Source of the DNA: Squalus acanthias
Taxonomy: Eukaryota
DNA length: 64,000 nt
NCBI GenBank assembly: GCA_030390025.1
Contig: CM059453.1
Span: 6,014,001-6,078,000 of the forward strand
Direction of reading: 5' to 3'
In this document: positions 24,973 through 59,100 of the stretch, in pieces
Layout: each line of letters starts with the position of its first letter
Numbering within the stretch: position 1 is the first letter of the stretch
Made by a program: the position numbers and the translations under genes
The notes under the pieces: generated by a model
Told to the model about the DNA's origin: nothing
Databases searched by the model: none
The model's input: the letters and a program-made list of their open reading frames with translations, nothing else

Positions 24973-27900
24973 GTAAATTTATATTGTTTTTAATAATTCT
25001 GCAAAAGGTGATTTATATCTTTTGGGTAAGGAACTGAAAAATACCGAATATAAATGATTTTTGGTGATTGATTTTAAAACTGGTGAATTAGGAATTTCAG
25101 GTGTATTCAACACACCCCTTGTTGGTGTATTATTGTGTTTGGTTGCCGATTCAAATAATATTTAAATATATGGCTTTTCAAGTAATATTTATGTAGTATT
25201 ATAATGCACATTGAATAACATTTTAATTCATATTTATTGAGAAAGCAAGGGGAGAATCAATAGATTTTTTATATATATAGAGCAATAATTTAACATATAT
25301 TTAATGCGTTTTTATTGGGCATTGGCTTGCTTGTTAGCGGATATGAATTTGGTTTTTAGATGAGTATTAAATTGTATATTATTGGTTCATAAATCTCCTA
25401 TCAAATAGGTATTCCAATAAACATTTTAATACGTGTTGTGATTGGTATTGAATTAGTATTTTAAATGATTTTGAAAAGGCCTTAACTGATACTTAAATTG
25501 CGATGGGCGCTTTTTTTTATTCTTTCATGGGATGTGCGCGTCGCTGGCGAGGCCAGCCTTTATTGCCCATCCCTAATTGCCCTTGAGAAGTTGGTGGTGA
25601 TCTGCCTTCTTGGACCGCTGCAATCCGTGTGGTGAAGTTAGAACCATACTGCTTGTTTGTCAATTAACACTTACTTTAATGGAACGTTAAGATGTTGCAA
25701 AGCATTTTAAATAGATACTGACATGGGTTCTCATGTTCCTTTTTCTCAGTTGTTTGCAGTGCTCAATGCTCTGTGGTGATGCCAAAAGTTGTGTCGGCGG
25801 TGTTGGGTTCATGTGTAGAGATCCCGTGTACATTTCATAATCTCGTCTATCACACTAAACCAACCGTGAGCTGGATAAAGTTGGGCTCTGGTGGTGTATT
25901 CCGCAAAATCTACATTATCTATGATTCTAAAGATCCACACAGGAAGGATTACAACTATCATGGAAGAGCTGAGTTTAAGGGCAACATTTCAGCTGAACAA
26001 TGTTCCCTCCTGATAAAGGACATCAGGAAGAGTGATGAGGGTACATATCATCTCATCCTGGAATTCCCTTTGGACTACTATACTGATAAAAATCGCACTG
26101 ACGATGCTCAAGTCTCTCTTTCTATTTCGGGTTAGTTTTCCCTTTGATCCTTTCAGTACATTTTCACTCCAGTGCTTCAGTCTGATTCAACCTATGTGCA
26201 AAGTGTGCAAATTTTATAAAGTCGCTGGCCGATCTCAAAGGGTAGTTGCAACACAGGGTGCAGGGATACTGATAATGGACGCAGTGGTTCATATCCGAAA
26301 CACAGAAATATCTAGAAATTACAGCAGTAAAACAGACCGTTCGGCCCAGCCAGTCCATGTTGCTGTTTATCGTTCACATGAGCCACACTCCGAATCGCAT
26401 GTGTCTGCTCAGTTCCCACATCTCTGTATTGCAATTCCCTTCAATCACCTGTCGAACCTATTCTGAAATGTTCACATGAGGATAGATGTGTAACTTTTTG
26501 ATGGGACGTAAGACTGACGGTGTTGATCTACACCTGAAATAGAAATCAGTTGCTCATTATTTCCAGACCCGGACGGCAAGTTCAAATTCTGCCTCAGTCT
26601 GGTTCTATCCCCGCTGTCCCGTTGCTTTATACGTTTAGGCACTGCTGTTAAATCATCCCAAAATCTGTTGTAGCCTAATGAGGTCTGGCTCCAAACTTAA
26701 AGACTTCCTTGGTGTTGCTCGTTCCTCATACCAGCCAGAAACCACGCGAATCTGCCTTGCAGGCATCTCATAGCCTGGAGTCCCAAACAGACATTCAAAT
26801 TCCATCTGTGAGTTGTATGTGCCTCATATTTCCCCATTCTACTCTCTCTCCTTGAACACTTTGAAACTCCCTTTAGTACCCAGAGTTATTTACTGGGAGA
26901 CGTAATTTCAAGTTTTGCTTGGGTGTCAAACTGGCGATATAGGATGAGTCTTTCATTTGAAACCACGCCATATTTCCTTTTCTATGTAATGCAATGGAAA
27001 GTAAAAACAGTCGGGTTTGTATAATAGGAGTACGATGAGATATTGCCAGTTTTACACCATTTTCATTTGTTAACCTTATCCCCTACTTCTGCTATTATTT
27101 ACTGTCGGGACATTTGGACATCACTAACTCCAGCGCTATATACAAATAATCTATGTACACAGTGAATAAAAGCAATTAATGAACTCAACCTTTTGGGACA
27201 CCGTCCTCAGTTACCAACCATTCTGAGCAACTGCACTTAACGGCGACTCACTATCATCCCTTCCAAACAGTTGTATTGCAATTTCTACCTTATCCTTAAT
27301 TCCAAACTTTTCCAATGATCTCCTGTATTTACCGTCGGCAATGGCTTGCTGGTTACATTTTTAATTACTTTTGTTTGAAGCGTTTTAGGACGTTCCGAAA
27401 GCTATAAACGCACTTAATAAATGCACTCTTTTTTCTTGCCTTTCCCTAGTCAGAGCTCAGTTACCCCACTTTTAATTAGATCTGAATTCCAAAGTACATT
27501 TTACAGTTATGCGAAAGTGAGTTCAAATTATGATATATTTGTTCATTCTGATCACACGTCACCAACATGCTATTTCTCCTGAAGGTTTCATGAGATTTAC
27601 ACGCGAGGTATCTGCTGTGTTTCTCAAGCACAATCTATGTTACCTGTCGTTTTCAGTTCTGTTCATTTCTTGAGCATCAGCTTTCTATATTGACCTTTCT
27701 TTGCATCGTAATTTTGGGCCTCTCTGTGTCTGCATTAGTCACAATCTCACTGGTAAGTGCTGATGCAAAGATAGGCACATGAAAGAATCAAATACTTGTG
27801 ATACTTGTAGAGATAACCTTGATTTTAATTCCTGCGTGCAAAACTGATCTAAAGGTACCACAACCATAATTTGATAATGTAGGTGATAAAGCGACGGATA

Positions 27901-30900
27901 TTTAATTACCAGAGGTTATATATTGCCCGGTGAGGCATTAAAATACCTTTTAACTCCAAGGCGTAATTTAGAATAGCGAACTCACTTGCAACACTTAACA
28001 GACAAAAAAATACAAAATGTATTCCTTTTTAAAATTCTTTATCAGATTGAGTTGGAGCAGATCACTTGCCCGTTTTAAGATTGAAATGAACCTAACACGC
28101 GCGTTTGCTCCTACTCTTATAGAAAAGCCAGAGATTTCAGGTTATGGGGAACTGACCGCTGGACAAACTGCACGACTGACCTGTTCCATCATCCACTACT
28201 GCCCGGAGGGCAACCTGCAACTTAAGTGGATGAATTACAATGTGTCCCTGCCTCTTCCATGGTCTACTCAAGATGGAACAGAAATAATCAATGAACGTTT
28301 TGGTTCTCGGAGAATTTCATCCTTGATCACCTTCACTCCATCATCTGCTCATCACGGAGCAGTTCTGGGATGCACAATTTTGAATGGTGATATCCCAACT
28401 CCTTCTCTCCAAACTCGTACCTTGATGATTAAGTGTAAGTATCTGCTCTAAAGGTAATAGATATAACCTACCGGACAAGGGTTTTTATTATTTATAATTC
28501 CATCCTGAACAATTTAATAAGGGTTTAGGACCGCATCAAATAATGTATTGAGAAAAAATGACCTTTGTACTCTAAGTTTTCACCTGGAAAATTAATGAAT
28601 CGGAAGGCTGCTCAAGCCAATCCTCATAGCAAACTATTTTAGGAAGATTCTGAGCTATAATTGAATGCTGGGGGCTGCCAGAGTTTGGCTTATGTGATTG
28701 TTAGTTCGTATTCTAAGGACTTCCAGTGACGTTCTGAGTGAAATCAGTCATAAAAGCATTAATAAAGGAAATGGCGAGTAATCTAAAGCTGATCTCTGCG
28801 ATGATCTCCGATCGGGCTTCAGAATTGGCCTGAATGAGTTATCAGAGTTAACGTACGTACACCACCAAATGAACAAAAGGGGAAGGGTGGGGTACATTGT
28901 CCAGGAAATATACATTATTTTATAACTTTAAACTGACAGACAATAAAGGTTAGATGTTTTCATTTCATAACGACCCAATATCAATATTTCATGAGGAGCG
29001 AAATCATGCTGACTGAATATTCACGTTTTACATTAATACCTATTTCAGATGGACTGGAAATACCAATCGTCAATTCCTCTATAGCAGCTGTGGAAGGAAC
29101 CTCATTATTATTATACTGCACCGCCTGGGGGAAGCCTCTGGCCAGCTTGAGATGGGTGAAAAATGGTGAAGAGATCAGCAGATCTTCCACTGGTGAACTA
29201 AAGCAGATATTCCGCAACATTAGTTCTGAGGATGACGGTGAATATTGTTGCATAGCTCAAAATGCCCAGGGCACCACCAACCGCTCCACACGGATTTCTC
29301 TACAATGTAAGTATGTATGAATTTATCAATTAGATAGTAAGCTTTCAGTTCACGAACTCTGGATTAAATTCCAAATTCCTCTTGCCTGCTTGCTGGAAGG
29401 CGCACATGTTCATGAGTTTGGGATAGTGTCACCACTTCCTGCAGAAAAAGCGCAAAAGAATCTCAATGGTTCCAATAATGGAAACCAGCCTGGCCTCTAG
29501 CTCAGTGTGACAGGATTGGAAGATGGCACAATGTGGCATAAATGCATCATGTTGTACATTTATGAAGTTGCGACAGGAGCACATTTACTGGTAACTTTAC
29601 TCTGAATCTAAATGTTCATAAATATTAATCGTAGTCTGAAGAAAGCAATTTTCCAATTCTTAGAACGCCAATCCCACATTTTGATAAGATTAAATTCTCT
29701 CAAAATTATCTAATAAAATGGTGTAAAGCCACCTTCCGTTACTTGTATTAATGTTGAGTTAGGTCCTTTGAACTGTCGCCTTGTAAGCCGGACATTTATT
29801 GAAGAAACATGTTAGTCCACCACAAACGAAGATGATTCAAATCCTGCCTAAAGAGAAGAAATTGAAATTAATTAACCTTTTATATCAGTGACGGGGGAAT
29901 CAAGTTTGTGTGTATATTTTACATAATTAACACTCTGAGCTTGCTCCGTCTGAGGTTCCCCCACAACATTTGCCAGGACAAGTATGGTTGGACTGAACAC
30001 TCATTGGGTTTAACATGAAATTATTCCTTACGTGCGCTCACCTGTTACAAGTGAAAATATAATAAGCCACCAACTGGTGCAGCAAAGTTTGCTTTGCATT
30101 AAAATAGCACCTACCAGAACTATTATGGTTAGTTCAACTAATGACTTAATTGTACTCGACACTACAACTGTTTTACATGAGCATTTCCTACTGATGTTTC
30201 CATCTTTTTAGATAAACCCACAATTTTAGCAGGCCCGACATGCAGCAGCTCTGAGAACTGGATTAATTGTACCTGCCGCATCAGAGCCAATCCAACGGGA
30301 AACATCACATGGAGCCTCAATGGGAGAATTCTCACTGAGAACACGTCACATTTGGAAGTAATCTCTTGGGCGGTGAATAATCGTCTCGTGGAGAGCTCCC
30401 TGAGATTGACTCACCCAACCGGAACCGGAAACCTGATCTCATGTGTTGCAGCAAACGAGCACGGTGATTCTGTCAGTAAATACCAGCTCAACTCTAAGGG
30501 TACATGTTTAATCTGTCTGTAATTTAATACTATAAGTGAATTGTTCGAATACTGGTCAGTCACTAAGTGAAAGGTGATAGTGTCAGAAAAAAACGGTTCC
30601 ATTCAGCAGGTCCACACTGAATCTATCCAGAACTAGTGTAAGGACCACTTTCCATCAGTGGCCAGTTACCAACTGAACCATGTTATGCATTTCAACTTTG
30701 AGTCTTCTGAAATATGCTGCGATTTTATTTTCCAACATGAAATGAAATTATCTGAGCACCAGAAGTAGCATGAGCGCTTGAAAAATAGCATTTTCTGCAT
30801 TAAGATAAACACTTTAGAAAATCCGAATTCTGCTCACTCGTCCCCGGATTCTGTTCCTGTTCCACACGACTGCCTACTTCACACAAGTGTAGTTCACAGT

Positions 30901-32786
30901 GGGGTAAGAGCCACATAACAGGCACAAATAATGAATGACGACGGTGTTTTTTACCCCCAGAATTTCCAAAACAGCGGTTGTAGAAAGCAAGAAGTGTCCA
31001 ATCCCCGTAGTTCCCGACATACCAATAAAACTGTTGGTGGCGACAGGGTGAACTGGTTGCTCTCCTGTCTTGCCTGTTCAGTTTGTCCTACCGCTGCACG
31101 CCCTTCCCCCACCCAGCGGACAAGGAATTTTAGGCCCTATATTATCTGGTTACAGAACCGTTTTTATTTAATACATGTTCATGATTTCAGAATATCAAAA
31201 GCTGTGTTGTAATATCAATGTCCTAATATGGAGCATTTTTTTCTCACATTAGCTAAATTGTCCTGGATACATGTCTGCCTGACTGGATTAACAACTCTCC
31301 TTTATATCATCCTGACTGTAGCCTTCGTTGCCGAGCAGATGCGGATGTGCAGGTGGTTTTATAATTCGATAGACGGGTAGTATGGGGGAATATCATACAA
31401 AACGGACATAGACATCGGGAAACGCTCCAAATACGAATCATGGTTGACACAAATCACCGACTCAGAGAAGGGAGTGTTTGGGCTGAGCTGGAAGGTGTGG
31501 AGGAGAGAGTAAGGTGGGAGCTAGATCCTGCCGCACAGAAAAGCCAGTTTCACATTGACGCCTGTATAGTTCGGATGATGGGAAGCAATATTAAATTTAC
31601 TCTTATCCTCGTAAATAAATTATAGCTTCATGAACAGGTAAATGCTCCCTCTCCTGGACGGGGATATATGGGTATTGGGCGTAAAATATCGTCTTAACTC
31701 AAACTGGAAAATGTATATTTTAAATCTGCATGTGTCTAAACTCGCATAACGGAATGCATCGACTCAAGAACCGATGAAATGAAAGTGATATTTTGAAATG
31801 TAGGCGGGCAATCAGCGAAAACCAAATAAATTGTCTCAGGCTAGACAGGAAACGTGCGTTTATGAAATGTGCCCATGTCTTTCATAGGAATCCAAACACT
31901 CTCAATAAAACCAATCTAGTGGGAAATTCCTCTCGTGGCCCTTACTTGATCACATTCGAACTGTGGTCAGTAAGTGAGACGTGCACAAGGAATCTTCAAA
32001 CATATGTTTCTGATGTACACATGAATACATCTTTTCTCTCCTATCATTAACTGTTTGATTTATAACAAATCATTTTTCAGGAAGAAATCTGCAGAGGCAA
32101 GGGTATCTCCAGGACAGATCAAAGACGCAGCGCCCAGCAGTGTCATATGGACAGCTTCGAATGCCCAGGTGACTGTGGCGAGGTTAACTGTTTCAGTATT
32201 GTAGTTATCTATAGAAAAATAGGAAATTCCGGAAATATTCAGCAGATCAGCCAGCATCGCTGCAGAGAGAAACAGACTTAACGTTTCAAGTCGCTGACCT
32301 TTCATCAGAACAGATGTTGGGCAGTGAGCCTGATGGAGTGGTCAATATTATTATATTGATGATTACATATTAGATTTTTCATAGATTGTAAATCACCAAT
32401 CACGTTAGGTTTAATTTTTAATCCAAATATCAAAGATAGCCTGCATCTGATAAGGTACGAACTACCTTAGGGGTTGGATGTAAACTGTAGGGGCACTATA
32501 ACAAGTAGATTTCCTCTGATTAGTTTCTGCACCAGAAAGATAAGAACCGGAGACAATGTTCTTAAAGTATAAACGGATCTACATACAGCGACCACTGATT
32601 CAACTTGCGTGACTGTATATCAACGCAAATTCTGCAACTAACTAAGCAGAAATATACGAATCCTGAGCGAATAATAAAAGCACATCAGCTTAGATTCCGC
32701 ATTTTATTGAGTTCACACCTGGTTTAACTCCATTGCTGCTGTTTATGTTACAGAGTGACGATGGACATGCAGAAGTGCAACTTTAG
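24930..32786 (+). CDS. Gene B: intact Siglec-like receptor, 8 coding exons (24930-24972, 25750-26130, 28123-28434, 29049-29306, 30212-30499, 31253-31352, 32081-32168, 32754-32786), 500 aa, V plus 3 C2, TM, Tyr-free tail
   Basis: All introns GT-AG with compatible phases. Exon lengths sum to 1503 nt and I found no internal stop on manual translation. Confidence 0.82.
25750..26130 (+). CDS. Gene B: Siglec-type V-set exon
   Basis: 381 bp. GSCVEIPCTF (B-strand Cys pair), GRAEFKGN, QCSLLIKDI (E-strand Cys) and DEGTY with no F-strand Cys give the Siglec V-set disulfide pattern. Confidence 0.92.
28123..28434 (+). CDS. Gene B: first C2-set exon
   Basis: 312 bp. LTCSIIHYCP carries the extra Cys for the Siglec V-C2 interdomain disulfide, followed by ITFTPSSAHHGAVLGC. 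Confidence 0.92.
29049..29306 (+). CDS. Gene B: second C2-set exon
   Basis: 258-bp paralog of 211-468 with canonical splice sites. Confidence 0.92.
30212..30499 (+). CDS. Gene B: third C2-set exon
   Basis: 288 bp, open frame YKPTILAGPTC..SKYQLNSK. Missed by the ORF track because it has no start codon. Confidence 0.9.
31253..31352 (+). CDS. Gene B: transmembrane exon (B-type, with His and Glu)
   Basis: cattag acceptor and AG|gtggtt donor, 100 bp, phase 1-2. Reads AKLSWIHVCLTGLTTLLYIILTVAFVAEQMRMCR. Conserved at 51722. Confidence 0.78.
32081..32168 (+). CDS. Gene B: cytoplasmic exon lacking the ITIM
   Basis: 88 bp, phase 2-0, same size as 4117-4204. Reads KKSAEARVSPGQIKDAAPSSVIWTASNAQ, with no Tyr. 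Confidence 0.78.
32754..32786 (+). CDS. Gene B: truncated terminal exon (SDDGHAEVQL*)
   Basis: gttacag acceptor homologous to 5928, with TAG at 32784-32786. Same stop position in gene D. AATAAA at 33631 and 33643. Confidence 0.7.
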   Translation, partial: SDDGHAEVQL

Positions 32787-35600
32787 TTTATTCTCTAGAT
32801 CGAAACCAGTTAAGAAGAAAGATTATATACGCAACTGGAAGATTCTCAATACTGCGATTATTTATGGATATATCCACCACGAGGACACCTGAGTATGGAA
32901 CAATTATATCTAACTGAAAACGATTAATGTATAATAGCAAAATTCCAAGAATGCTGGAAATCTCAGTAGAAACAGAAAACGCTGGGAGCGCTCAGCAGGT
33001 CATGCAGCTTCTGTGGAGAGAAAAGCAGTGTTAACGTTTCAGGTCGATGGCCTTTCTTCAGAACGATTTATAGATAGACCGTTAGGGCAGCGGTGTTGCT
33101 ATAACTCCGCTGCTTTCGAACGCTGTAGAGATGCCTCTGAGAATGTACATCTTTCAGGGTACATTTAATAACTTCACTGCTGTATGTTGGAAGCTTTAAT
33201 TTACAATCACAAACGTTTATCCCACTGTATTTCCATTAGTTTTCAAAATCCTGACAGAATGGGACTTAACTTTTGAGGCAAATTGGGATTTTCTTTTAAA
33301 GTGCAACGCATTGCTACAGGTGTGTAATTACTGCAGGAATTCACAAGGGGTCAGGGCACGGCCTTTGTCCTCCAAATTTAGGAAGGACTCACTTCCTTTA
33401 GACATTATCAATATTGTGAACTTTTCGCTACATCGAGACACAGTTTGTAAAAGGCTGGACCGAGTGCGAGTGAGCAGAATAGAGGCAATTGAAAACACCC
33501 TACAGAAGGTATATCTCGTCACTTTTCCAAAACCCCACTGAAAAAGGTTATAGCTTTAAAGGCGCTGACGGGAGGGATGGCAGGCAACTTGACTAAATAG
33601 AGGATATTTCATTTTGTTTTACAATTTTGCAATAAACTTTTGAATAAAACATTTTTCAAATCTCTTACATTTTCACACACAGCATTGGCGTCCCAGCCTC
33701 ACAATAGCACAGCCTACTGTACCAGTATGATATGTTATTTCTGTTAAAATCTTAGATCAGTGAATAATGATAGTTTGAGCGAGCAATACTCTAAAACATA
33801 TGACCTGGTGCCATTAATTTATTAGATCAGATTGCAGTGGAAGTCGGGCGTTGCATAGAGAAATATCTCTATCTCCTAGAAGATAGGAGCAGGAGTAGGC
33901 CATTCGGCCCCTCGAGCATGCTCCGCCATTTAATGAGATCATGGCTGATCATCCAAATTCAGTACACTGCCCCTGATTTCTCCCCATATCCCTTAATCCC
34001 TTTAGCCTTAAGAAATATATGTCATGGTGACCAAAGGAGACGTATCATCGACGCTTTCTTTAGTTTGGATGCATTCCTTTAATTGAAGCACGGGCTTACA
34101 GCCATGGGGTGCAATTAATGTCCTCCTTTCTGAGTTATTCGAAAAACTGAACCCTGATCTTTCATGTTGCCCTCAAACAGGCGGCGATGTTAAAAACTTG
34201 ATTTTTTTTCCTCTTTAGCGTTTCAGAAGTTATTATTTGATTTCCAGTTGAAGAACGTCATTAGGGTTCATAAAGGGGGATGGGTAAATGAGCCAAAGGT
34301 GTTGTCCTGGCAAAAATATGCAGTTATCATTTAATGCACTTCCTGACTAAGGCATTGCTGTACTGCTAATCATCCTCTGCCTTTCCCTTTCCACTGAATC
34401 CAAAGGAGAATAAAATTGGCTTGGGCCTAAAACCGAGTGCCGATTTGCTATCGATAGATTTATATTACCGCGAAGACCAATTTCAACCCGGGAAATATTT
34501 CCACTTTACAGCCGGGTGAGAAACGTGCAGGAGAGCTCGACCCAGCATGAAACCCCCCGCCCCATGTTCATTCACGTTGTATTCAAATAATAAATCAACT
34601 GACCACTGTCTCTGGCTAAGTTGATTTTAAGATCCGGGCCCTTTGTCCCAATTGGAATAAATAGTTCGGTCCTGAACCACGTCACTTTCATTCCACTTGC
34701 TCCCAGTGAAATTTGTAGAAATAATGGTTGAGCATTACTATGTATCCAGGATTGTACCCACACTGATCAGGTTGCAGGACCTGTTGTTTCAATCACTTTC
34801 AGCTATATATTTTTCAGCGGTTGAAGCATTTTCGACAAAAAAAGCTTCAAGTTCATTTTACACGTCCCTAATTTGCAAGAAAAGCACTGGAACAAATAGG
34901 GTGGATATTCTGTTAAGTTCTGCAAAATTACAGAGCTTGAGTGTGAATGTAAAGATTTAAATCAATTGAAAGAAAGGCTGTTTACCACAGCGGCAAACGG
35001 TTTACTGTCAAACAGCTCCTATATATGACGTCACAGATGCAAATTGGAGCGCTCATTAAAGAGGGTGACGAAACCACACGTCGACAGACTGCAGCAGGCA
35101 AACTTAATTTAGTTAACAACTCTTCAACATTCATCTCGTATTAGCTGCCAGAATGCTGAATATGTGTGAAATGTGATTCAGAGTCGTCTGCAAGCGTGGG
35201 CGGTGCCATTCTGACGCAGATGCCAATTTATCAATATCATAAATAACAGTGCATTTGGTGTTTGTTTGTGTTTGTAAGCGAGAGAGAGGGAGATGCTTTT
35301 TTCTGTATTAATTATTATTTAATAACTGTTGGACATACTATAACATCATATTCATTAACAGTCGGTCACACGCAGCACATTCACATGATGTGCTAGCTGC
35401 CTACCTCACCGACGGAGCTGATTGAGTGAGCACTGTTCCTAAACATCGGTAGGAACCGAAACGGACTTCCCCGATAGTCTCATGCTGATTCGCAAAGAAA
35501 TCCAAGATGTGACTGGAAAGCAAAATGCTGAAATCTGAATGGTGTTAATTGTGAACTGTGTTCTTCATTTTGCTCGTGAAATCGGCAGCAGTTTCCAGCC

Positions 35601-36652
35601 ATGGGGAGTTGCGTGTTGCTGTCGCTCATGATGTTGACAGAAGGTACATTTGTGATGTTTTGTTTCCAATTTCTACAACAAGTGATTTATATCTTGTGGG
35701 AAAGCAACAGAAAAAGACCGCATATGAATGATTTTCTGTTATTGATTTCAAAACATGTGAAATAGGAATTTCATGATTGTTTAACACGTGCGTTGTTGCT
35801 GTATTATAGCTTCTTAAAGCCTATTCAAATAATCTTTAAATATAGGGCTTTTCAAATTATATTTAATGAGTACTGTAAAGCATGATTTAATAACATTTTA
35901 CTCCATATTTATTGAGTGAATCAAAGTAGAATCAATAGTTGTTTAATATTTTTTGATCATAATTTTAACGCATATTTAATGTGCATTTTTATTGGGCGTC
36001 CGCTTACTTGTTAGTGGATATGTATTCGGTTTTTAGATGAGTATTAAATAAGTATATTACCGGTTCCTAAATCTCCCATCAAATAGGCATTCCTATGACC
36101 ATTTCAACAGGTGTTGGAATTGAAATGTATTTAGTATTTTTTCCTGATTTGAAAAGACCTTCACTTATATTTTAATTGCTATTGTGATGGGCGATTATCT
36201 GTCAATTAAAAAATACATTAAGATGTTGAAATGTATTTTGAATTAAAGTATGTCTAATTTATTTTTCTCAGTTGTTTGCAGTGCTCAATGCGCTGTGGTG
36301 ATGCCAAAAGTTGTGTCGGCGGTGGCCGGTTCATGTGCAGAGATCCGGTGTACGTTTGATAATCTAGTCTATAGCGATATCGCTGGTGTGATGTGGTTAA
36401 AGAGGGAACCTGGTTCTGGTACCCCAGGTTACTCCATTATCTATGATACTAAAGATCCATCCAGGCAGCATTATAACTATCGTGGAAGAGCTGAGTTCAA
36501 GGCCAACATTGCAAAGAAACAACGTACCTTCCTGCTGAAGGATATCAGGAAGAGTGATGAGGGTACATACGAATTCACCATGGAGTTTGCTTCGGCCTGG
36601 TATACGAATAGACGTCGCACTCAGCGTTTTCAAGTCTCTGTTTCAGTTTTAG
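35601..36652 (+). pseudogene. Gene C: orphan leader (35601-35643) plus intact V-set exon (36272-36652), no downstream exons of its own
   Basis: Leader MGSCVLLSLMMLTE. The 381-bp V exon is open with a good G|gtgagt donor. Intron homology to gene E stops abruptly at 38306. Confidence 0.8.
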
Positions 36653-45090: not shown

Positions 45091-48000
45091 CCAGGAAGCT
45101 GAATAAGTGTGAAATGTGAGTCAGAGGCGTCTGCAAGCGTGGGCGGTGATCTTCTGACGCAGATTCCAACATATTATGTTCAAAAATAACAGGGTATTTA
45201 TTGTAAGTGTGTTTATGTGAGAGAGAGAGAGATGCTGCTTCTATAGTATGCATTGTTTAGCAACTGTTCGACATACCATACCATCATATTCAGTAACAGT
45301 CGGTTAGACGCAGTCGATTAACAGGATGTGGTAGTTGCCCACCTCTCCAACGAAGCTGAGTGAGTAAGCACTGTTCCTACAGTTCGGTTGATACAGACTA
45401 GCGGACTTTTCCCGATAATCTGACGAAGATTAGCAAATAAATCCAAGATATGGCAGGCATGAAGAATGCAGAAACCTGAATGGGCTCGATTGTGGAATTG
45501 ATTCTTCATTTTGAGAGTGACATCTACAACAGGTTCCAGTCATGAGGGGTTGCTTGTTTGCTTTTCTCATGATATTAACAGATGGTAAATTTATATTGTT
45601 TTTAATAATTTTGGAAAAGTTGATTTATATCTTTTGGGTAAGGAACTGGAAAATACCGAATATAAATGATTTTTGGTGATTGATTTTAAAACTGGTGAAT
45701 TAGGAATTTCATGATTGTTCAACACACCCCTTGTTGGTGTATTATTGTGTTTGATTACCTATTCAATTAATATTTAAATATATGATGTTTCCGTAATATT
45801 TATTAATATTATAATGCACATTTAAGAACATTTTAATTCATATTTATTCAAAATGCAAGGGGAGAATCAATAGATTTTATATATATATATAGATGAATAA
45901 TTCAATATTTATTTAATGTGTTTTTATTGGGCATTGGCTTGTTTGTTAACGGGTATGTATTTGGTTTTTAGATGAGTATTAAATATGTATATTATTGTTC
46001 ATAAATCTCCTACCAAATAGGTATTCCAATAAACATTTTAATACATGTTGTGATTGGTATTGAATGAGTATTTTAAATGATTTTGAAAAGGCCTTAACTG
46101 ATACTTAAATTGTGATGGGCGCTTTTTTTATTCACCATGGGATGTGCGTGTCGCTGGCGAGGCCAGCCTTTATTGCCCATCCCTAATTGCCCTTGACAAG
46201 GCGGTGGTGAGCTGCCTTCTTGGACCGCTGCAGTCCTTGTGGTGAAGGTACAACCATACTGCATGTTTGTCAATTAACACGTACTTTAATGGAACGTTAA
46301 GATGCTGCAAAGCATTTTAAATAGAATCTGACATGGGTTCTCATGTTCCTTTCTCTCAGTTGCTTGTAGTGCTCAATGCTCTGTGGTGATGCCAAATGTT
46401 GTGTCGGCAGTTTTGGGTTCATGTGTAGAGATCCCGTGTACATTTGATAATCTCGTCTATTACACCAACCCAAGCGGGACGTGGATAAAGTTGGGCCCTG
46501 GTCCTGGAAACCGCGGTTTCTCCATTATCTATGATTCTGAACATCCACACAGGAAGCATTATAACTATAGTGGAAGAGCTGAGTTTAAGGGCAACATTGC
46601 AGCTGAACAATGTTCCCTCCTGATAAAGGACATCAGGAAGAGTGATGAGGGTACATATCAACTCAACTTGAAATCCCTTTGAGCATCTATACTAAAAACC
46701 ATCGCACTGACGATGCTCAAGTCTCTCTTTCTATTTCGGGTGAGTTTTCCCTTGGTTCCTTTCAGTACATTTTCACTCCAGTGCTTCAGTCTGATTCAAC
46801 CTATGTGCAAAGTGGGCACATTTTATAAAGTCGCTGGCCGATCTCAAAGGGTAGTTGAAACAGAGGGTGCAGGGATACTGATAATGGACGCAGTGGTTCA
46901 TATCCTAAACACAGCAGTATCTAGACATTACAGCTGTAAAACAGGCCGTTCGGCCCTGTCCAACCGTGTGGCTGTTTATCCTTCACATGAGCCACACTCC
47001 GAATCGCATGTGTCTGCTCAGTTCCCACATCTCTGTATTGCAAATCCCTTCAATCACCTGTCGAACCTATTCTGAAATGTTCACATGAGGATGGAGGTGC
47101 AACTTTTTGATGGGACGTAAGACTGACGATGTTGATCTACACCTGAAATAGAAATCAGTTGCTCATTATTTCCAGACCCGGACGGCAAGTTCAAATTCTG
47201 CCTCAGTCTGGTTCTATCCCCGTTGTCCCGTTGCTTTATAAGTTTAAGCACTGCAGTTAAATCATCCCAAAATCTGTTGTAGCCTAATGAGGTCTGGCTC
47301 CAAATTTAAAGGCTTCCTTGGTGTTGCTCGTTCCTCATACCAGCCAGAAACCACGCGAATCTGCCATGTAGCGACCCCATAGACTTGAGTCCCAAACAGA
47401 CATTCTTATTCCATCTGTGAACTAACTGCGGTTCTCTTTAGAATCTTGACTTTTATATTTAACATCACTTGCCATTAAACGCAGGACTCCAATAACATTT
47501 TCATGCCCGTTTCCACTGTCGGTGCTGCTTCACATTCTTATGACCCTGGAGCCCCAAATTTCCCCTCTATTCCACATCACCCAGCTTTCCACCGTTCAAA
47601 CTACTATCTACCACCTCATATTCACTGACACTGAGTTGTATGTGCCTCATATTTCCCCATTCTGCTCTCTCTCTCTCCATGAACCCTTTGGAACTCCCTT
47701 TAGTACTCAGAGTTATTTACTGGGAGACGTAATTTGAAGTTTTGCTCGGGTGTCAAACTGGCGATATAGGATGAGTCTTTCATTTGACACCACCCCATAT
47801 TTCCTTTTCTATGTAATGCAATGGAAAGTAAAAACAGTCGGGTTTGTATAATAGGAGTACGATGAGATATTGCCAGTTTTACACCATTTTCATTTGTTAA
47901 CCTTAATCCCCTACTTCTGCTATTAATTACTGTCGGGACATTTGGACATCACTATCTCCAGCGCTATATACAAATAATCTATGTACAAAGTGAATAGAAG

Positions 48001-50537
48001 CATTTAATTAACTCAACCTTTTGGGACACCGTCCTCAGTTACCAACCATTTCTGAGCAACTGCACTTAACGGCGACTCACTATCATCCCTTCCAAACAGT
48101 TGTATTGCAATTTCTGCCTTATCCTTAATTCCAAACTTTTCCAATGATCTTCTGTATTTACCGTCGTTAATGTCTTGCTGGTTACATTTCTATTTACTTT
48201 TGTGTGAAGCGTTTTAGGACGTTCCGAAAACTTTAAACGCACTTAATAAATGCAGTCTTCTTTCTTGCCTTTCCCTATTCAGAGCTCAGTTACCCCGCTT
48301 TTAATTAGATCTGAACATTTTACAGTTATGCGAAAGTGAGTTAAAATTATGATATATTTGTTCATTCTGATCCCACGTCACCAACATGCTATTTCTCCTG
48401 AAGGTTTCATGAGATTTACACGCGAGGTATCTGCTGTGTTTCTCAAGCACAATCTATGTTACCTGTCGTTTTCAGTTCTGTCTATATTGACCTTTCTTTG
48501 CATCGTAATTTTGGCCTCTCTGTGTCTGCATTAGTCACAATCTCACTGGTAAGTGCTGGTGCAAAGATAGGCACATGAAAGAATCAAATATTTGTGATAC
48601 TTGTAGAGATAACCTTGATTTTAATTCCTGCGTGCAAAATTGATCTAAAGGTACCAGATCCATAATTTGAATAGTGTAGGTGATAAAGCGACTGATATTT
48701 AATTACCAGAAGTTATATATTGCCCGGTGAGGCATTAAACTACCTTTTAACTCCAAGGCGTAATTCAGAATAGCGAACTCACTTGCAACACTTAGCAGAC
48801 AAAAAATTACAAAATGCATTCCTTTTTAAAATTCTTTATCAGATTGAGTTGGAGCAGATAACTTGCCCGTTTTAAGATTGAAATGAAGCTAACGCGTGCG
48901 TTTTCTCCTGCTCTTATAGAAAAGCCAGAGATTTCAGGTTATGGGGAATTGATCGCTGGACAAACTGCACGAATGACCTGTTCCATCATCCACAACTGCC
49001 CGGAGGGCAACCTGCAACTGAAGTGGTTTAATTACAATGTGTCCCTGCCTCTTCCATGGTCTACTCAAGATGGAGCAGAAATAATCAATGAACGTTTTGG
49101 TTCTCGGAGAGTTTCATCCTTGATCACCTTCACTCCATCATCTGCTCATCACGGAACAGTTCTGGGATGCACAATTTTAATTGATGGTGTCCCAACTCCT
49201 TCTCCCCAAACTCGTACCTTGAATATTAAGTGTAAGTGTCTGTTCTAAAGTTAATAGATATAACCTACCGGACAACGGTTTTTAATATTTATACTCCATC
49301 ATAAACAATTTAATAAGGGTTTAGGACCGCATCAATTAATGTATTGAGAAAAGATGGACGTCTGTACTCTTGAGTTTTCAAATGGAAAATTAATGAATCG
49401 GCTTTCATTTCACGAACTCTGGATTAAATTCCAATTTTCTCTTGCCTGCTTGCTGGAAGGCGCACACGTGCACGAGGTTGGGATAGTGCCACCACTTCCT
49501 GCGGAAATACCGCAAAAAAACCTCGATGGCTCCAGTAATGGAAACTAACCTGGCCTCTAGTTCAGTATGACAGGATTGGAAGATATCAAAATGTGGCATA
49601 AATGCACCATGTTGTACATTTATGAGGTTGCTACAGGAGCACATTTACTGGGACCTTTACTCTACATCTAAATGTTCATAAATATTACTCGTAGTCTGAA
49701 GAAAACAATTTTCCAATTCTTGGAACGCCAATCGCACATTTTGATAAGCACAAATTCTCCTAACGGTATCTAATAAAATGGTGTTAAGCCAACTTCTGTT
49801 ACTTGTATTAATGTTGAGTTAGGTCCTTTGAACTGTCTCCTTGCATGCCGGACATTTATTGAAGAAGCAATTCAGTCCAACACAAACGATTATGTTTAAA
49901 ATAGTGCATAAAGTGAAGACATTAAATTAATTGACCTTTTATAACAGTGACGGGTGAATCACGTTTGTGGGTATATTGCTCCGTCTGAGGTTCCCCCACA
50001 ACATCTGTCAGGACAGGTATGGTTGGACTGAACACACATTGGGTTGAATATGAAGTTATTCCTTACGGCGCTCTCGTGTTACAAGTGAAGATATTGTTAG
50101 CCACCAACTGGTGCAACAAAGGTTGCTTCATATTAAAATAGAACCTACCAGAACTATTATGGTTATTTCAACAGATTACTTAATTGTACTTCGACACTGC
50201 AGCTGTTTTACATGATCATTTCCTATTTAAGTTTCCATCTTTTTAGATAAACCCACAATTTTAGCGGGCCCGAAATGCAGCAGCTCTGAGAATTGGGCGA
50301 ATTGTACCTGCCGGATTAGAGCCAATCCACCGGGAAACATCACATGGAGCTTCAATGGGACAATCCTCACTGGGAACACGTCACATGTGGAAGTAATCTC
50401 TTGGGCGGTGAATAGTCATATCATGGAGAGCTCCCTGAGATTGACTCACCCAACCGGAACCGGAAACCTGATCTCATGTGTTGCAGCAAACGAGCACGGT
50501 GATTCTGTCAGCAAATACCAGCTCCACTCTAAGGGTA

Positions 50538-50971
50538 TAGAAACATAGAAACATAGAATCTAGGAGCAGGAGTAGGCCATTCGGCCCGTCGAGCCTGCTC
50601 CGCCATTCAATACGATCATGGCTGATCATCCAAATCCAGTACCCTGTCCCTGCTTTGATCCCCACAGTACACATATCCCACCCTACCCCCGTAACCCCAC
50701 GTATTTAATTCCCCCTAACATATCCCATCCTATCCCCATAACCCCACATATTTAATCCCCCCTAACACTAAGGGTCAATTTATCATAGCCAAATCAACCT
50801 AACCCACACATTTTTGGACTGTGGGAGGAAACCGGAGCACCCGGAGGAAACCCACGCAGACACGGGGAGAATGTGCAAACTCCACACAGACAGTCACCCG
50901 AGGTCAGATTCGAACCCGGGTCTCTGGCGCTGTGAGGCACCAGTGCTAACCACTATGCCACCGTGTTGCCC
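50538..50971 (-). mobile_element. tRNA-derived V-SINE (HE1-like) with HER1-LINE 3' tail
   Basis: Minus strand: ggcaacacggtggcatagtggttagcact (A box), gggttcgaatct (B box), V-domain gtggagtttgcacattctccccgtg, then the LINE tail and (tttctatg)n. Absent from the gene B paralog. Confidence 0.88.
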
Positions 50972-51879
50972 ATATGTTTAATCTATCTGTAATTGAATAC
51001 TATAAGGGAATTGTTCGAATACTGGTCAGTCACTAAGTGAAAGGTGATAGTGTCAGAAAGTAACGGTTCCATTCAGCATGTCCATACTGAATCTATCTAT
51101 AATTAGTGCAAGGACCACTTTCCATCAGTGGCCCGTTACCAACTGAACCATGTTATGCATTTCAACTTTGAGTCTTCTGAAATATGCTGCCTTTTTATTT
51201 TCCAAGATGAAATGAAATTATCTGAGCACTAGAAGTAGCATGAGCGCTTGAAAAATAGCCTTTTCTGCATTAAGATAAACACTTTAGAAAATCCGAATTC
51301 TGTTCACTCGTCCCCGGATTCTTGTCCTGGTCCACACGACTGCCTACTTCACACAAGTGTAGTTCACAGTGGGGTAAGTGCACATAACAGGCACAAGTAA
51401 TGAATGACGACGGTGTTTTTTCCCCCCAGAATTTCCAAAACAGCGGTTGGAGGAAGCAAGAAGTGTCCAATCCCCGTAGTTCCCCATATAACAATAAAAA
51501 GGTTGATGTCGACCGGTTGCACTGTTTGCTCTCCGGTCCTGCCCTTTCAGTTTGTTCTACCGCTGCAGCACCTTCCCCCACCCAACGGACCAGGAATTTT
51601 AGGCCCTATATTATCCGGTTACAGAACTGTTTTTTATTTAACACATGTTCATGATTTCTGTCTATCAACTGCAGTGTTGTAATATCGATGTCTAATATGG
51701 AGCATGTTTTCTCACGTTTAGATAAATTGTCCTGGATACATATCGCCCTGAGTGGATCAACAAATCTCCTTTATATCATGCTGACTATAGCCTTCATTGC
51801 GGAGCAGATGCGGATGTACAGGTGGTTTTATAATTCGATAGACGGGTAGTTTGGGGAAGTCTCATTCAAAACGAACTTA

Positions 51880-52176
51880 AGTGAGAAGTCGCACAACACC
51901 AGGTTATAGTCCAACAGTTTTATTTGAAATCACAAGCTTTCGGAGCTGCTGCTCCTTCGTCACGTGAAGTGAAGGATTACAAATCGGCAACGCATTTATA
52001 GACAGAACTCTGTCTCTGTCTATATATGCTTTGCCGAATTGTATTCCTTCCCTGCACCTGACGGAGGAGCAGCAGCTCCGAAAGCTTGAGATTTCAAATA
52101 AAACTTTTGAACTATAACCTGGTGTTGTGCGACTTCTCACTTATGTCCACCCCAGTCCAACACCGGCATCTCCGCA
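51880..52176. mobile_element. Palindromic Penelope-like (inverted pLTR) non-autonomous insertion with 14-bp TSD
   Basis: Inverted arms span 51878-52143. TCAAAACGAACTTA is repeated at 51866-51879 and 52177-52190. The site is empty in gene B (about 31398-31412). Confidence 0.75.
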
Positions 52177-55100
52177 TCAAAACGAACTTAGACATAAGGA
52201 AATCTTATAAATACGAATCTTGATTGACACAAATCACCGCCTCAGAGCAGGGAATGTTCGGGCTGAGCTGGGAGGTATGGAGGAGAGAGTGAGGTGGGAG
52301 GTAGATCCTGCCGCACAGAAACGCCATTTCACATTGGCGCCTGTATAGTTTGGATGATGGGATGGAATATTAAATTTGACTCTTATCCTCGAAAATAAAT
52401 TATAGCTTCATGAAAATGTAAACGCGCCCTCTCCTGGTGGGGATATATTGGTATTGGGCATAAAATATCATCTTACCTCAAATCTGAAATTACATTTTTT
52501 AATTCTGCTTAATTCTAAACTCGTATCATGGGATGCATCATCTGAAGAACCGATGAAATTAAAGCGATATTTTGAAATGTAGGCGGGCAATCAGCGAAAA
52601 CCAAATGAACTGTCTCAGGCTAAATAGGAAGCGTGTGTTTATAAAATGTGCCAATGTCCTTCATATGAACCTGAACACTTTCAGTAAAACCAATCTAGTG
52701 GGAAATTCCTCTCGTGGCCCTTACTTGATCATATTCTAAATGTGGTCAGTAAGTTAACCATGCAGAATGAATCTTCAAAAATATGTTTCTGATGTAGACA
52801 TGTACTCATCTTTTCTTTCCTATTATTAACTGTTTGGATTTATTATATATACATATATATTTCAAATCATTTTTCAGGAAGAAATCAGCAGAGGCGAAGG
52901 TATCTCCAGAACAGATCAAAGACTCAGCGCCCAAAAGTGTCATATGGAGACCTTTGAAGGCCCAGTTGACTGCGGCGAGGTTAACTGTTTCAGTCCGGTG
53001 GTTAGCGATAGAAAACCGGTAAATTCCGGAAATATTCAGCAGGTCAGGCAGCATGTCTGCAGAGAGAAACAGAGTTAACGTTTCAAGTCGCTGAACATTC
53101 ATCAGAACAGATGTTGGGCAGTGAGTCTGTTTGAGTGGTAAATATTGTTATAGTGATGGTTACATATTCGAGTTTTCTTAGATTGTAAATCACCAATCAC
53201 GTTAGGTCCAATTGTTAATCAAAATATCAAAGATAGCCAGTATCTAATAAGGTACGAACTACATTGGGGGCTGGATGTAAACTGTAGGGGCAATAGTGCA
53301 AGTAGATTTCCCCTCAGTAGTTTCCGCACCAGAAAGATGAGAACCAGAGTCAATGTTCATAAAATATAAACGGATCTACATACAGCGACCACTGATTCAA
53401 CCTTCGTGACTGTATATCAACGCAAATTTTGCAACTAACTCAGAAGAAATATACGAAGTCTGAGCGAATAATGAAAGCACATCAGCTTAGATTCCGCTTT
53501 GCATTGAGTTCAGACCTGGTTTATCTCCACTCCTACTTTTTATGTTACAGAGAGACGATGGACATGCAGAAGTGCAACTGTAGTTTATTCTCAAGATGGA
53601 AACCAGTTAAGATGAAAGGATTATGTACACAACTGGAAGATTCTCAATACTGCGAATAATGATAGGTATATCCACCACGAGGACACCTGAATATGGAACA
53701 ATTATATCTAACTGAAAACAAATTTCCAAGTATGCTGGAAATCTGAAAAAGAAACTGGGAACGCTCAGCAGGTCATGCAGCTTCTGTGAAGAGAAAAGCA
53801 GAGTTTAGGTTTCAGGTCGATGGACTTTCGTCAGAACGATTAATATATAGACGGTTAGGGCAGCGGTGTTGCTTTCACTCCGTTCCCTTCGAACGCTGTA
53901 GAGATGCCTCTGAGAATGGACATATTTCAGGGTACATTTAATAACTTCACTGCTGTATGTTGGACGATTTAATTTACAATCACAAACGTTTATCCCCCTG
54001 TATTTCCATTAGTTTTCAAAATGCTGACAGAATGGAACTTAATTTTTGAGACAAATTGGAATTTTGTTTTCAAGTGCAACGCATTGCGACAGGTACATAT
54101 CTATGTGTAATTACTGCGGGAATTCACAAGGGGTCAGGGCACGGCCTAAGTCCTCCAAATTTAGCAAGGACTAACTTCCTTTAGGCATTTTCAATATTGT
54201 GAATTTTTTTGCAACATCGGGACACAGTTTGTAAAAGGCTGGACTGAGTGCGAGTGAGCAGAATAGAGACGATTGCAAACACCCTACAGAAAGTATATCT
54301 CGTCACTTTTCGAAAACCTCACTGAAAAAGGTTATAGCTTTAAAGGCGCTGAGGGGAGTGATGGAAAGCAACCTGAGAAAATGGTGGATATTTCTTTATA
54401 TTTTACAATTTTGCAATAAACTGTTGAATAAAACATTTTTGAAATCTCTTACTTTTTCACACACAGCATTGGCGTCCAGCCTCACAATAGCACAGCCTAT
54501 TGCAACAGTATGATATGTTTATTGCTGTTAAAATCTTAGATTCAGTGAATAATGATAGTTTCAGCAAGCAATACTCTGAAGCATGTGACCTGGTTCCAGT
54601 AGTTTATTAGGTCACATTGTAGTGGAAGTCGGGCGTTCTCACGGTGACTAAAGGAGACATGTCATTGGTACTTTCTTTAGTTCGGATGCATTCTTTTAAT
54701 TGCAGCACGGGCTTACAGCCTTGGGTTAAAATTAATGCTCTCCTTTCTGAGTTATTAGACAAACTGAATCCTGATCTTTCATGTTGCCCTCATACAGGTG
54801 GCGATGATAACAACTTGAGTTTTTTTTCCTCTTTAGATTTTCAGAAGGTATTATTTGATTTCAAATTAAAGAACATGATTGGGGTTCAGCAAGGGGAGGT
54901 AAATGAGCCAAAGGTGTTGTCCTGACAAAAAAATGCAGTTATCATTTAATGCACTCCTTGACTGGTGAATTGCTTTACTGTTAATCATCTTCTGCCTTCC
55001 CTTTCACCTGAAGCTAATGGAGAATAAAATTGGGCGGGGTCTAAAAGCGAATGCCGATTTGCTATCGACAGATTTACATTACCGCCCAAGAGCAATTTCA

Positions 55101-56198: not shown

Positions 56199-59100
56199 AT
56201 GAGGAGTTGTGTGTTCCTTTCGCTCATGATGCTGACAGAAGGTACATTTCTGATGTTTTTTTTACAATTTCTACAACAATTGATTTATATCTTGTGGGAA
56301 AGGAAAAGGAAAATACCGAATTGAATGATTTTTTGTTATTAATTTCAAAACTTGTGAAATAGGAATTTCATGATTGATTAACGCGTGCGTTGTTGTTGTT
56401 TTATAGCTTTTTAAAGCCTATTCAAATAATCTTTAAATATAGGGCTTTTCGAATTATATTTAATCAGTATTGTAATTCAGATATAAGAACATTTCCTTCA
56501 TATTTATCCTGTGATGCAAAGGAGAATCAATAGATGTTTAGATATTTTAATGCATATTTAATGCGCATTTGTATTGGGTGTTCGCTTACTTGTTAATGGA
56601 TATGTATTCGTTTTTTAGATGAGTATTAAATATGTATATTACCGGGTCATAAACATCCCATCAAATAAGCATTACTATGATTATTTCAATAGGTGTTGTG
56701 ATTGGAATTTATTTAGTATTTTTTCTTGATTTTGAAAAGACCTTCACTTATATTTAAATTGCTAGTGTGATGGGCGATTATTTGTCAATTAAAAAATACA
56801 TTAACGGATGTTTCAGATATTGAAATGTATTTTGAATTAAAGTGTGTCTAATTTATTTTTCTCAGTTGTTTGCAGTGCTCAATGCGCTGTGTTGATGCCA
56901 AAAGATGTGTCGGCGGTGGTCGGTTCATGTGCAGAGATCCGTGTACGTGTACGTTTGATTATACAGTCAATCGGAGAATCGCTGGTGTGACCTGCTTAAA
57001 GAGGGAACCTGGTTCTGGTAACCGGGGTTTCTCCATTGTCTATGATTCTGGAAATCCATCCAAGCAGCATTACAACTATCGTGGAAGAGTTGAGTTGAAG
57101 GGCAACATTGAAAACAAACAATATTCCTTCCTGCTAAAGGATATCAGGGAGAGTGATGAGGGTACATACGAAAGCAGCATCGAGTTCGCTCCGGGCTCGT
57201 CTATGAATAGACGTCGCACTCAGTGTACTCACGTATTTCTTTCTGTTTTAGGTGAGTTTTCCCTTTGTTCCTTTTGAACATGTTCAATCCAGTACTTCAG
57301 TATGAATCAACCTATGTGCAAAGAGTGCAAATATCTTCATGTCCCTGGCCGATCTCAAAGGGTATTTGAAACAGAGGTGCACGGTTGCTGATAAGGGACG
57401 CAGTGGTTCATATACTGAACACAGAAGTAAATATAAATTACAGCAGTAAAACAGGCCCTTCGGCCCAGCCAGTTCGTGTTGCTGGTCGTCCTTCACATGA
57501 GCAACACTTCTAACTCCTCTGTCCCGTTGCTTAATAAGTTTAAGCACTTCTGTCAAATCATCCCAAAATCTGTTTAACCTAATAAAATCTGCAAACATTT
57601 TTAAATACTTTCCTCGTTTTTGTACTTCCTCATACCAGCCAGAACCTAGGCGAATAAGCCCTGTAGTCTTCCTATGGACTGGAGCCCAATACTCGCATTC
57701 TTACTCCAATTATGAACTAACTATTGTTCTCTTTAGAATCTCCACCACATCTCGAATTCCTTTTATAGATCTCTTGCCATTAAACCCTGAGCTCCAGAAA
57801 CATCTTCATACACTTTCCCACCGGAGGTGCTGCTTTTACTGTCTTATGAACCTGATCCCAAGTTCCTCTGCTCTTACACATCTCCCAGCTCCTACGGTTC
57901 AAATTAACATCTACCTCCTCATATTTTCCGATCTTTACTTATATCTGCCTCTTATGTATCCATTGTACTATATCTCCAGTATCCGTTTGCAACTCCCTTT
58001 AGTTCTCTAGTTATTTCCTGGGAGTTGCACTTGTAACTTTGGCATGGGTGTCAAACTTGAGATATTGGATGTGCCTCTCAATATACACCCCGCCCAATTT
58101 TCATATTGATACAATCCAATTAATTTATGCCAGGAAAATTTGAACATCACTCTCTTTAGCTTCTTCTCCAAATTATTGATTCACACAGTGAGTAGGAGCA
58201 ATCCCACAGCACAACCCTGTGGGACACCGTACTGGGATCCAACTATTCTGAGCAACTGCGCTTAACGGCGACTCACTGCTTCATCCCTTCTAAACAGTTT
58301 GTATTGCAATGTCTCCCTTATCCTTAATTCCAATCTTCTTGATATTATCTCCAATTATCTCCTGTACTTACCGTCGGCAATGGCTTGCAGTTTACATTTC
58401 AAATTACTTTTGTGTGAAGCATTTTTGGAAGTCACGAAGACTGGAAAGGCACTTAATGAATGCAGTCTTTTTTCGTGCATTTCCCTATTCAGAACTCATT
58501 TACCCCGCTTTCAATTAGATCTGAATTGAAAAGTAAATTTTACAGTTATGCGAAAGTGAGTTCTAATTAAGATTTATTTGTAGACTCTGATCCCACGTCA
58601 ACAGCATGCTGTTTCTGCTGAAGGATTCATGAGATTTACATGCGAGATATCTGCTTTGTTTCTCCAGCACAAGTCTATGTTACCTGGCATATTCTGATCA
58701 GTCCATTTCTTGAGCATAATCTTTCTATATTGACTTTTCTTTGCAACATATCCTTTGGATCTCTCTGTGTCTACAATAGTCACAATCTCACTGGCAAGTG
58801 CTGGTGCATTGCAAGGCCTATGAGAGGATCAAATACGAGTGATAAGAACATAAGAAAATAAGAGCATAATAAATAGGAACAGGAGTAGGCCATTCGGCTC
58901 TCGAGCCTGCCCCGCCATTCATTAAGATCATGGCTGATTTGATCTTGGCCTCAACGCCAGTTTGCCGCCCGCTCCCCATAACCCTTTACTCCCCAGTAGC
59001 TCAAACATATATCTATCTCCGCCTCGAATATATTCAATGACTCCGCCTCCAAACCTCGCTGGGGCAGAGAATTCCAAAGATTCACGACCTCTGAGAGAAG

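Follow-up and report, generated by a model that had tools for sequence, protein, structure and literature searches.

What becomes of a Siglec once the arginine through which it holds sialic acid is gone, and does such a loss mark the death of a gene or the start of another kind of binding? The question is raised by a 64,000-nucleotide stretch of Squalus acanthias DNA (assembly GCA_030390025.1, contig CM059453.1, positions 6,014,001 to 6,078,000 of the forward strand; here called the window), which holds five tandem copies (A to E) of one immunoglobulin (Ig) superfamily receptor gene, all on the plus strand. The gene is laid out as a signal exon, a V exon, three more Ig exons, a transmembrane exon and two cytoplasmic exons; gene A starts upstream of the window and gene E runs past its end, so that B, C, D and E show their V exons. 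A sequence-only reading had proposed that all four V domains lack the essential arginine, with a different residue in each copy, and that a Siglec-fold family had been repurposed for non-sialic ligands. To judge from the sequences compared here, the loss of the arginine is old and inherited and not a local decay, and we hold with moderate confidence that these V domains have a non-canonical, probably non-sialic ligand.

That the genes descend from Siglecs is well supported. All four V exons match Pfam V-set, three of them also match Ig_CD22, and the best match of the B V domain by sequence among solved structures is mouse sialoadhesin (E 4.8e-12). An AlphaFold model of the B V domain (mean predicted local distance difference test score [pLDDT] of 86.6, with about 78 for residues 101-120, the less certain FG loop) retrieved sialoadhesin at rank 1 in Foldseek. 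Compared with sialoadhesin, the model gave a Z score of 17.1 and a root mean square deviation of 1.8 Å over 111 residues; MAG was tied (Z 16.8), and both lead other V-set proteins by a margin of just about one unit. The family profile matched MAG best (E 3e-42), then Siglec-8, Siglec-5, CD33 and CD22, and the exon map of B is that of a Siglec, namely, an N-terminal Siglec-type V-set domain followed by C2-type domains in a type I membrane protein. The Siglec fold of the earlier proposal is thus borne out by sequence, profile and fold matches. The position of the genes within the Siglecs is not supported in the same way. The ESM Atlas returned generic CD22-like, CD33-like and V-set clusters only. 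The genes do not fit an orthologue of MAG (Siglec-4), with their four Ig exons, their five copies within 64 kb and changes at both Arg118 and Tyr127.

The cysteines tell a similar story, with reservations. The CxxxxC motif is found in all four copies, in E only across its frameshift, and the extra cysteine of domain 2 in B, D and E. The Siglec pattern (CxxxxC, an E-strand Cys, no F-strand Cys and the domain 2 Cys) can accordingly be read in the sequences of B and D. At the position of the E-strand partner, Cys84, C has Arg and E has Tyr, and in E the core Trp41 is replaced by Cys as well. The statement that the CxxxxC motif and the domain 2 cysteine are kept therefore holds for the motif itself in every copy and for the extra cysteine in three, but the E-strand partner is lost in C and E, and C has no domain 2 at all.

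The missing arginine itself was located on the plus strand from the DxGxY motifs at 26034 (B), 36556 (C), 46644 (D) and 57155 (E). The codons at the arginine site, ATC at 26055, ACC at 36577, AAC at 46665 and AGC at 57176, read Ile, Thr, Asn and Ser, respectively. In a gap-free alignment, B Ile102 falls on the F-strand arginine of mouse sialoadhesin (Arg97), and profile position 117, which is B residue 102 in a profile of 24 family members, aligns to MAG Arg118. As two independent alignments and the fold agree, an error of register is excluded, and the absence of the essential F-strand arginine from all four window copies is confirmed. The further claim, that the residue differs in every copy, is true as read and needs tempering. 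The four-way difference is a single nucleotide column, the second codon position, and each of the codons is either ATC or a single step away from it; in the 126-codon V exon, the site is among two columns with four different bases and four residue columns with four different residues. The difference also hinges on the placement of the gap in D, whose missing base has seven equally good placements, two of them within the arginine-site codon. The Asn of D is thus uncertain, but no placement gives Arg.

Only B is whole among the four V-bearing copies. The B-to-D duplication junction cuts gene C off at about 38306, and a tblastn search of 36653-45542 (E 0.05) found no domain 2 or later exon before gene D. 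Gene D has lost, besides the base in its V exon, which may be missing through an assembly error, its domain 3 exon; this second loss leaves the frame intact and is frequent in the relatives. In E, a 5-nt duplication shifts the V frame at about codon 25. With C, D and E broken, a picture of four working receptors with four residues is overstated. The C V exon (36272-36652) ends in phase 1 and could, on this exon map, be spliced onto gene D from its domain 2 exon onwards (48920-53716), skipping the frameshifted V exon of D.

Relatives were collected by three homologue searches and one representative search among database gene models. They come from Heptranchias perlo, Pristiophorus japonicus, Heterodontus francisci, Mustelus asterias, two Scyliorhinus species, Carcharodon carcharias and the ray Narcine bancroftii, among others, and the nearest named relatives are all sharks; about 125 further matches, most of them multi-domain proteins whose scores were summed, were set aside. 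A V-domain tree was built from 33 rows, 29 of them from outside the window; in it, the four window copies fall inside a 17-row group (support 92/91), the named members of which belong to six sharks and the electric ray Narcine bancroftii. None of the 17 rows has Arg at the site; Ile, the usual residue of the family, is found in 11, Ser in 3, and Thr, Asn and Leu in one each. The sister group of the window copies consists of shark genes with Arg and Trp; of its 13 shark-type rows, 10 keep Arg, and the three outgroup rows, whose long branches make the root weak, all have it. In an unrooted tree of domain 2, an independent exon, 12 group members separate from 12 others with a support of 100/100.

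The presence of a ray within the Arg-less group places the loss of the arginine before the split of sharks and rays, some 250-300 million years ago. The trees hold no chimaera, skate or mammalian rows and thus set no upper bound on its age. Full-length Arg-less relatives occur in seven named species, excluding the possibility that the loss is a by-product of pseudogenisation in S. acanthias. In Heptranchias, Mustelus and Scyliorhinus canicula, Arg-less and Arg-keeping kinds lie on contigs of equal length, which suggests, without showing adjacency, that the two kinds form one cluster in these species. The arginine was also lost separately, to Ala, Lys or Thr, in the sister group (P0023, which has Arg at residue 40, P0030, P0064 and P0162; the last, from S. 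canicula and with Thr at the site, stands outside the trees), and one origin for all 20 non-Arg rows is rejected (P value of the approximately unbiased test [p-AU], 0.00014).

The changes reach beyond the arginine. The A-strand Trp is present in 1 of the 17 Arg-less rows (9 have Cys) versus 9 of the 13 sisters, and a G-strand Tyr or Trp, at the position of MAG Tyr127, in none of the 17 versus 6 of the 13. In the four window copies, Cys6 is aligned to the MAG Trp and Arg115 to Tyr127, so that neither aromatic contact is present. Arg118, Tyr127 and Thr128 are named as the sialic acid contacts of MAG (PMC7226832). The canonical site thus appears from the alignments to be dismantled at three positions, not one, and the change of two aromatic contacts supports the loss of canonical binding. 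The genes are Siglecs by ancestry, but judged by the defining trait, the essential arginine, they are no working Siglecs of the canonical kind. The cysteine at the A-strand Trp site (25765-25767 in B, and the equivalents) is an extra one without an evident partner and possibly serves to form dimers.

The same rows bear on the idea that this is a MAG-like adhesion family in which the arginine was never needed, that of the sister genes being incidental, and which would not be Siglec-derived in function. MAG is indeed the best profile match, and MAG domains 4 and 5 align to the membrane-proximal domains of the family. However, the sisters keep Arg, the A-strand Trp and often the G-strand aromatic together, all three outgroup rows have Arg, and pairs of the immunoreceptor tyrosine-based inhibitory motif (ITIM) in the tails, tandem turnover and fast change of V are typical of immune receptors. 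We regard this explanation as very improbable.

The tails fall into two types. Gene A combines an uncharged transmembrane span with two ITIMs and a distal Tyr motif, and so has the membrane-proximal ITIM and distal ITIM-like motif of CD33-related Siglecs, a combination that B and D lack. Of 11 Arg-less relatives examined, 9 carry one or more ITIM matches in their tails. In B and D the transmembrane exon is of another type, with a Glu where the span ends on the inner side; the Tyr of the first ITIM has become Trp, and the last exon runs into an early stop. As this transmembrane type and a short tail are common to the Arg-less P0158 of Heptranchias, the ITIM-less form is old too. DAP12-type activating Siglecs need Lys or Arg in the transmembrane span (PMC7379906), and an activating pair of this type, like Siglec-14, -15 and -16, is not indicated since the spans of B and D have no basic residue. 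Their ITIM-less tail would fit a decoy or an activating partner of another type.

We propose that an ancestral elasmobranch Siglec-like gene duplicated before the shark-ray split. By the trees and alignments, one lineage retained the canonical sialic acid site; in the second the F-strand Arg was replaced by Ile and both aromatic contacts were lost later. The sequences show that the Arg-less lineage remained functional and grew through gene birth and death, the local copies C, D and E reflecting frequent gene death, and that most of its members are type I membrane receptors with ITIM and ITIM-like tails, B, D and Heptranchias P0158 being ITIM-less. Most likely these are leukocyte inhibitory receptors acting through their ITIMs, with decoy or activating counterparts. 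Under arms-race selection, the same front (GFCC') face of the V domain would bind a changing ligand that is recognized without the canonical bridge between Arg and carboxylate, such as a surface protein of the host or of a microbe. Of the proposed repurposing for non-sialic ligands, the old repurposed lineage, with its full-length ITIM-bearing relatives, has held up; a non-sialic nature of the ligand is unproven, above all in view of Arg115.

This residue is the main observation among several that weigh against the reading just given. Each of the four window copies has Arg115 where MAG has Tyr127, close by the former pocket: profile position 130, which is B Arg115, corresponds to Tyr127, B Thr116 corresponds to Thr128, and the ends of the fold alignment are in the same register (model 126 is MAG 138). 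Lys or Arg occupies position 115 in 9 of the 17 Arg-less rows and in none of the 13 sisters. At residue 40 of the C strand, which we assume from general Ig strand pairing to lie across from 102, the figures are 8 of 17 versus 3 of 13, none of them in the window copies. Heterodontus P0003 has Arg at 40 as well as at 115. Arg115 or a basic residue 40 could still hold an anion. The sequence-only reading had itself named another arginine in the pocket as evidence that would speak against it, and the alignment goes part of the way there.

Sialic acid or another anionic glycan, sulfated or containing a bacterial nonulosonic acid, might thus be bound via Arg115 or residue 40. Siglec-6 binds sialylated glycolipids without its canonical arginine, Arg122 (PMC10122656), and because of this precedent and of Arg115 by the old pocket, loss of the arginine alone does not show non-sialic ligands. 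Yet neither basic site is fixed (Mustelus P0006 and Heterodontus P0005, P0016 and P0017 have neither), the window copies have no basic residue at position 40, Arg115 lies in the part of the model that is less certain, and both aromatic contacts are gone. We consider binding through a displaced basic residue unlikely, if conceivable.

The history, too, is open to objections. When the two trait columns are removed from the V tree, support for the 17-row branch is 81/82, a value by which the branch is neither shown nor rejected (97/92 when the Arg-bearing row P0014 is added), and the domain 2 tree has no outgroup. Since the arginine was also lost separately in 3 of the 13 sister rows, the site appears to be labile in sharks generally. 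Moreover, three of the four V-bearing window copies are broken, the tail of B has no ITIM, and the B/D span, without Lys or Arg, does not indicate a DAP12-type activating partner.

Rates of change give a divided answer. V exons evolve faster than membrane-proximal exons: the ratio of nonsynonymous to synonymous divergence (dN/dS) for V is 1.08-2.00 in 6 of 6 pairs, the intervals excluding 1 in two of them, and for domains 3 and 4 it is 0.25-0.63 in 9 of 9 pairs, including pairs with D and E. Four of the six V intervals include 1, each pair holds a broken copy, and domain 2 reaches 0.80-1.75 in 3 pairs. V dN is 0.138 for B-D (noncoding divergence, 0.04-0.07 in adjacent introns and up to 0.135 elsewhere), 0.183 for C-E (noncoding, 0.10-0.21), and 0.308 for B-C (noncoding, 0.27). 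Because these values lie within or little above noncoding divergence, relaxed constraint explains much of the V excess; strong positive selection on V is not established, the intron control weakening the case. Across 16 rows, the BC, CC' and FG loops and the outward positions of the C strand vary most (2.2-2.6 bits), and strands B, D and E vary little (0.7-1.05 bits). Loops vary in any Ig family, and the pattern is compatible with diversifying selection on a binding face but is not proof of it. P0009 was excluded from this profile because its N-terminal part is nonhomologous; P0001 and P0009, database models labeled "hemicentin-1-like," look like two neighbouring family genes fused in annotation.

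These figures can also be taken to mean that the copies became pseudogenes, or set out towards that end, after the arginine was lost, with the four residues drifting neutrally from Ile and B as a leftover without a signaling role. The truncation of C, the frameshifts of D and E, the missing B-E disulfide of C and E, the tails of B and D, the four codons at or one step from ATC, and a V dN near intron divergence for C-E and B-C all fit such decay. It leaves the family unexplained, however, with its full-length Arg-less relatives in seven named species; the low dN/dS of domains 3 and 4, even in pairs with D and E, points to constraint until recently, Heptranchias P0158 shares the conserved B-type transmembrane exon, and the single base missing from D may not be missing from the genome. 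We find decay doubtful as an account of these genes. Going beyond the preferred reading of a non-canonical ligand, we suggest tentatively that since the shark-ray split a CD33-like inhibitory and decoy family may have had its arginine off the F strand and a basic residue next door (G-strand Arg115, or C-strand residue 40 elsewhere). It would have alternative pockets with new specificity, sialic acid-reading sisters in the same cluster, and an ITIM-less form signaling via its transmembrane Glu instead of Lys or Arg.

The exons of the five copies are collected in Table 1. Self-alignment of the window reveals a tandem duplication of ~21 kb, with B+C as one half and D+E as the other, and no further V exon was found in the A-to-B interval (E 0.05). 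The open last exon that lies 6 kb behind the last exon of A could, from its sequence, provide an alternative second inhibitory tail for A or be a relic of a lost copy. Arrays of 55-bp tandem units lie just upstream of B (24155-24481) and D (44820-45091), with one similar unit before C and E; they are possibly linked to promoters. Between transmembrane and first cytoplasmic exons, short AG...GT stretches (~3951-4008, 31805-31854 and 31888-31970), the first in A and the second in B resembling each other, are possible extra or dead exons. Dispersed repeat fragments, which we take from their appearance to be like long interspersed nuclear elements, occur on both strands at 8640-9462, 12500-15260, 22433-22895, 43095-43565 and 58851-59665, and there is a gap of N at 17358-17610.

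Table 1. Exons of receptor genes A to E, in window coordinates
Feature	Position	Strand	Remarks
A, Ig domain 3	211..468	+	Open frame, AG/GT ends; signal, V and domain 2 exons of A upstream of window
A, membrane-proximal Ig domain	1431..1718	+	
A, transmembrane	2537..2630	+	Uncharged, A/E type
A, first cytoplasmic	4117..4204	+	ITIM LVIYSTV
A, last exon	5928..6095	+	ITIM IVYATV and distal Tyr motif CEYAAI
Second last exon	12148..12321	+	Open, phase 0; ITIM INYATL and distal Tyr motif
B, signal	24930..24972	+	
B, V	25750..26130	+	Intact; Cys6, Ile102 (26055-26057), Arg115
B, Ig domain 2	28123..28434	+	Extra Cys
B, Ig domain 3	29049..29306	+	
B, membrane-proximal Ig domain	30212..30499	+	
B, transmembrane	31253..31352	+	B/D type, span without Lys/Arg, inner-end Glu; same type in Heptranchias P0158
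B, first cytoplasmic	32081..32168	+	ITIM Tyr replaced by Trp; possible second donor at 32182
B, last exon	32754..32917	+	Ancestral-phase stop after 10 codons; Tyr motifs out of frame
C, signal	35601..35643	+	
C, V	36272..36652	+	Open; Thr at Arg site (36577); E-strand Cys lost
D, signal	45542..45584	+	
D, V	46360..46739	+	380 nt; 1-nt deletion in or just after Arg-site codon (46665), frameshift, stop
D, Ig domain 2	48920..49231	+	Domain 3 exon of D deleted
D, membrane-proximal Ig domain	50247..50534	+	
D, transmembrane	51722..51821	+	B/D type
D, first cytoplasmic	52878..52979	+	Tyr replaced by Trp, like B; first donor mutated, second retained
D, last exon	53551..53716	+	Early stop as in B; ancestral frame readable behind two stops
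E, signal	56199..56241	+	
E, V	56866..57251	+	386 nt; frame shifted by 5-nt duplication; Ser at Arg site (57176); neither core Trp nor E-strand Cys retained
E, Ig domain 2	59952..60263	+	
E, Ig domain 3	60892..61149	+	
E, membrane-proximal Ig domain	62054..62341	+	
E, transmembrane	63163..63256	+	A/E type; tail exons past window

In the literature searched, mostly open access and without supplements, we found no account of shark Siglec clusters, of their loss of the arginine, or of an old, expanded Arg-less lineage, which does not establish that an earlier description is absent. Loss of the arginine in Siglecs is itself already known, and the age and breadth of this lineage would be what is new. 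Siglecs are listed among the families that arose in jawed vertebrates (PMC8455134), and fish genomes are reported to be without ITIM-bearing CD33-related Siglecs in a paper that, in the part available, deals with teleosts only and makes no mention of sharks or other cartilaginous fish (PMC7226832). That cartilaginous fish have a CD33-like inhibitory cluster where teleost work reports none bears on when such clusters arose. Arg loss has usually been taken as recent gene death or as a primate oddity; an Arg-less lineage with Arg-keeping sisters offers matched natural pairs for asking what Siglecs bind once the canonical site is gone, and these bear on sialic acid-independent Siglec ligands.

Among known systems, sialoadhesin and MAG give the best sequence and fold matches; the domains align to MAG d1, d2, d4 and d5, and the cysteine pattern is of the Siglec type. 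Unlike these proteins, which have five or more Ig domains, the shark genes encode four or three and are multicopy and fast evolving, and unlike MAG they have Ile for Arg118, Arg for Tyr127 and Cys for the A-strand Trp. They resemble the CD33-related cluster (Siglec-5/14 and Siglec-11/16) in tandem arrangement, birth and death, fast change of V, an ITIM with a distal Tyr motif, and two tail types on similar ectodomains. The likeness is one of features, the window containing no genes beside the cluster by which synteny with the mammalian one could be judged, and the shark ITIM-less form, unlike that of the CD33-related pairs, has no Lys or Arg in its transmembrane span. Siglec-6, a conceivable precedent for holding a sialylated ligand without the canonical arginine, retains this residue, unlike the shark copies, and has its second site at the V/C2 interface (PMC10122656).

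The closest parallels to the loss itself are the Arg-less Siglecs of primates, namely, human Siglec-XII (R122C), great-ape Siglec-5/14 (Arg to His or Tyr) and human SIGLEC17, in which, too, the F-strand Arg is replaced, the signaling tail is retained and null alleles are frequent (PMC6288428, PMC7379906). Siglec-5/14, a paired set, bind the beta protein of group B streptococcus without sialic acid (PMC6288428), and together with the Arg-less primate Siglecs they provide precedents for a non-sialic ligand. The primate losses are recent, scattered, confined to single genes and often polymorphic, and leave the rest of the site intact. In contrast, the loss in sharks and a ray is fixed in a multigene lineage, is accompanied by changes at two aromatic contacts, and stands beside a sister lineage that keeps the arginine.

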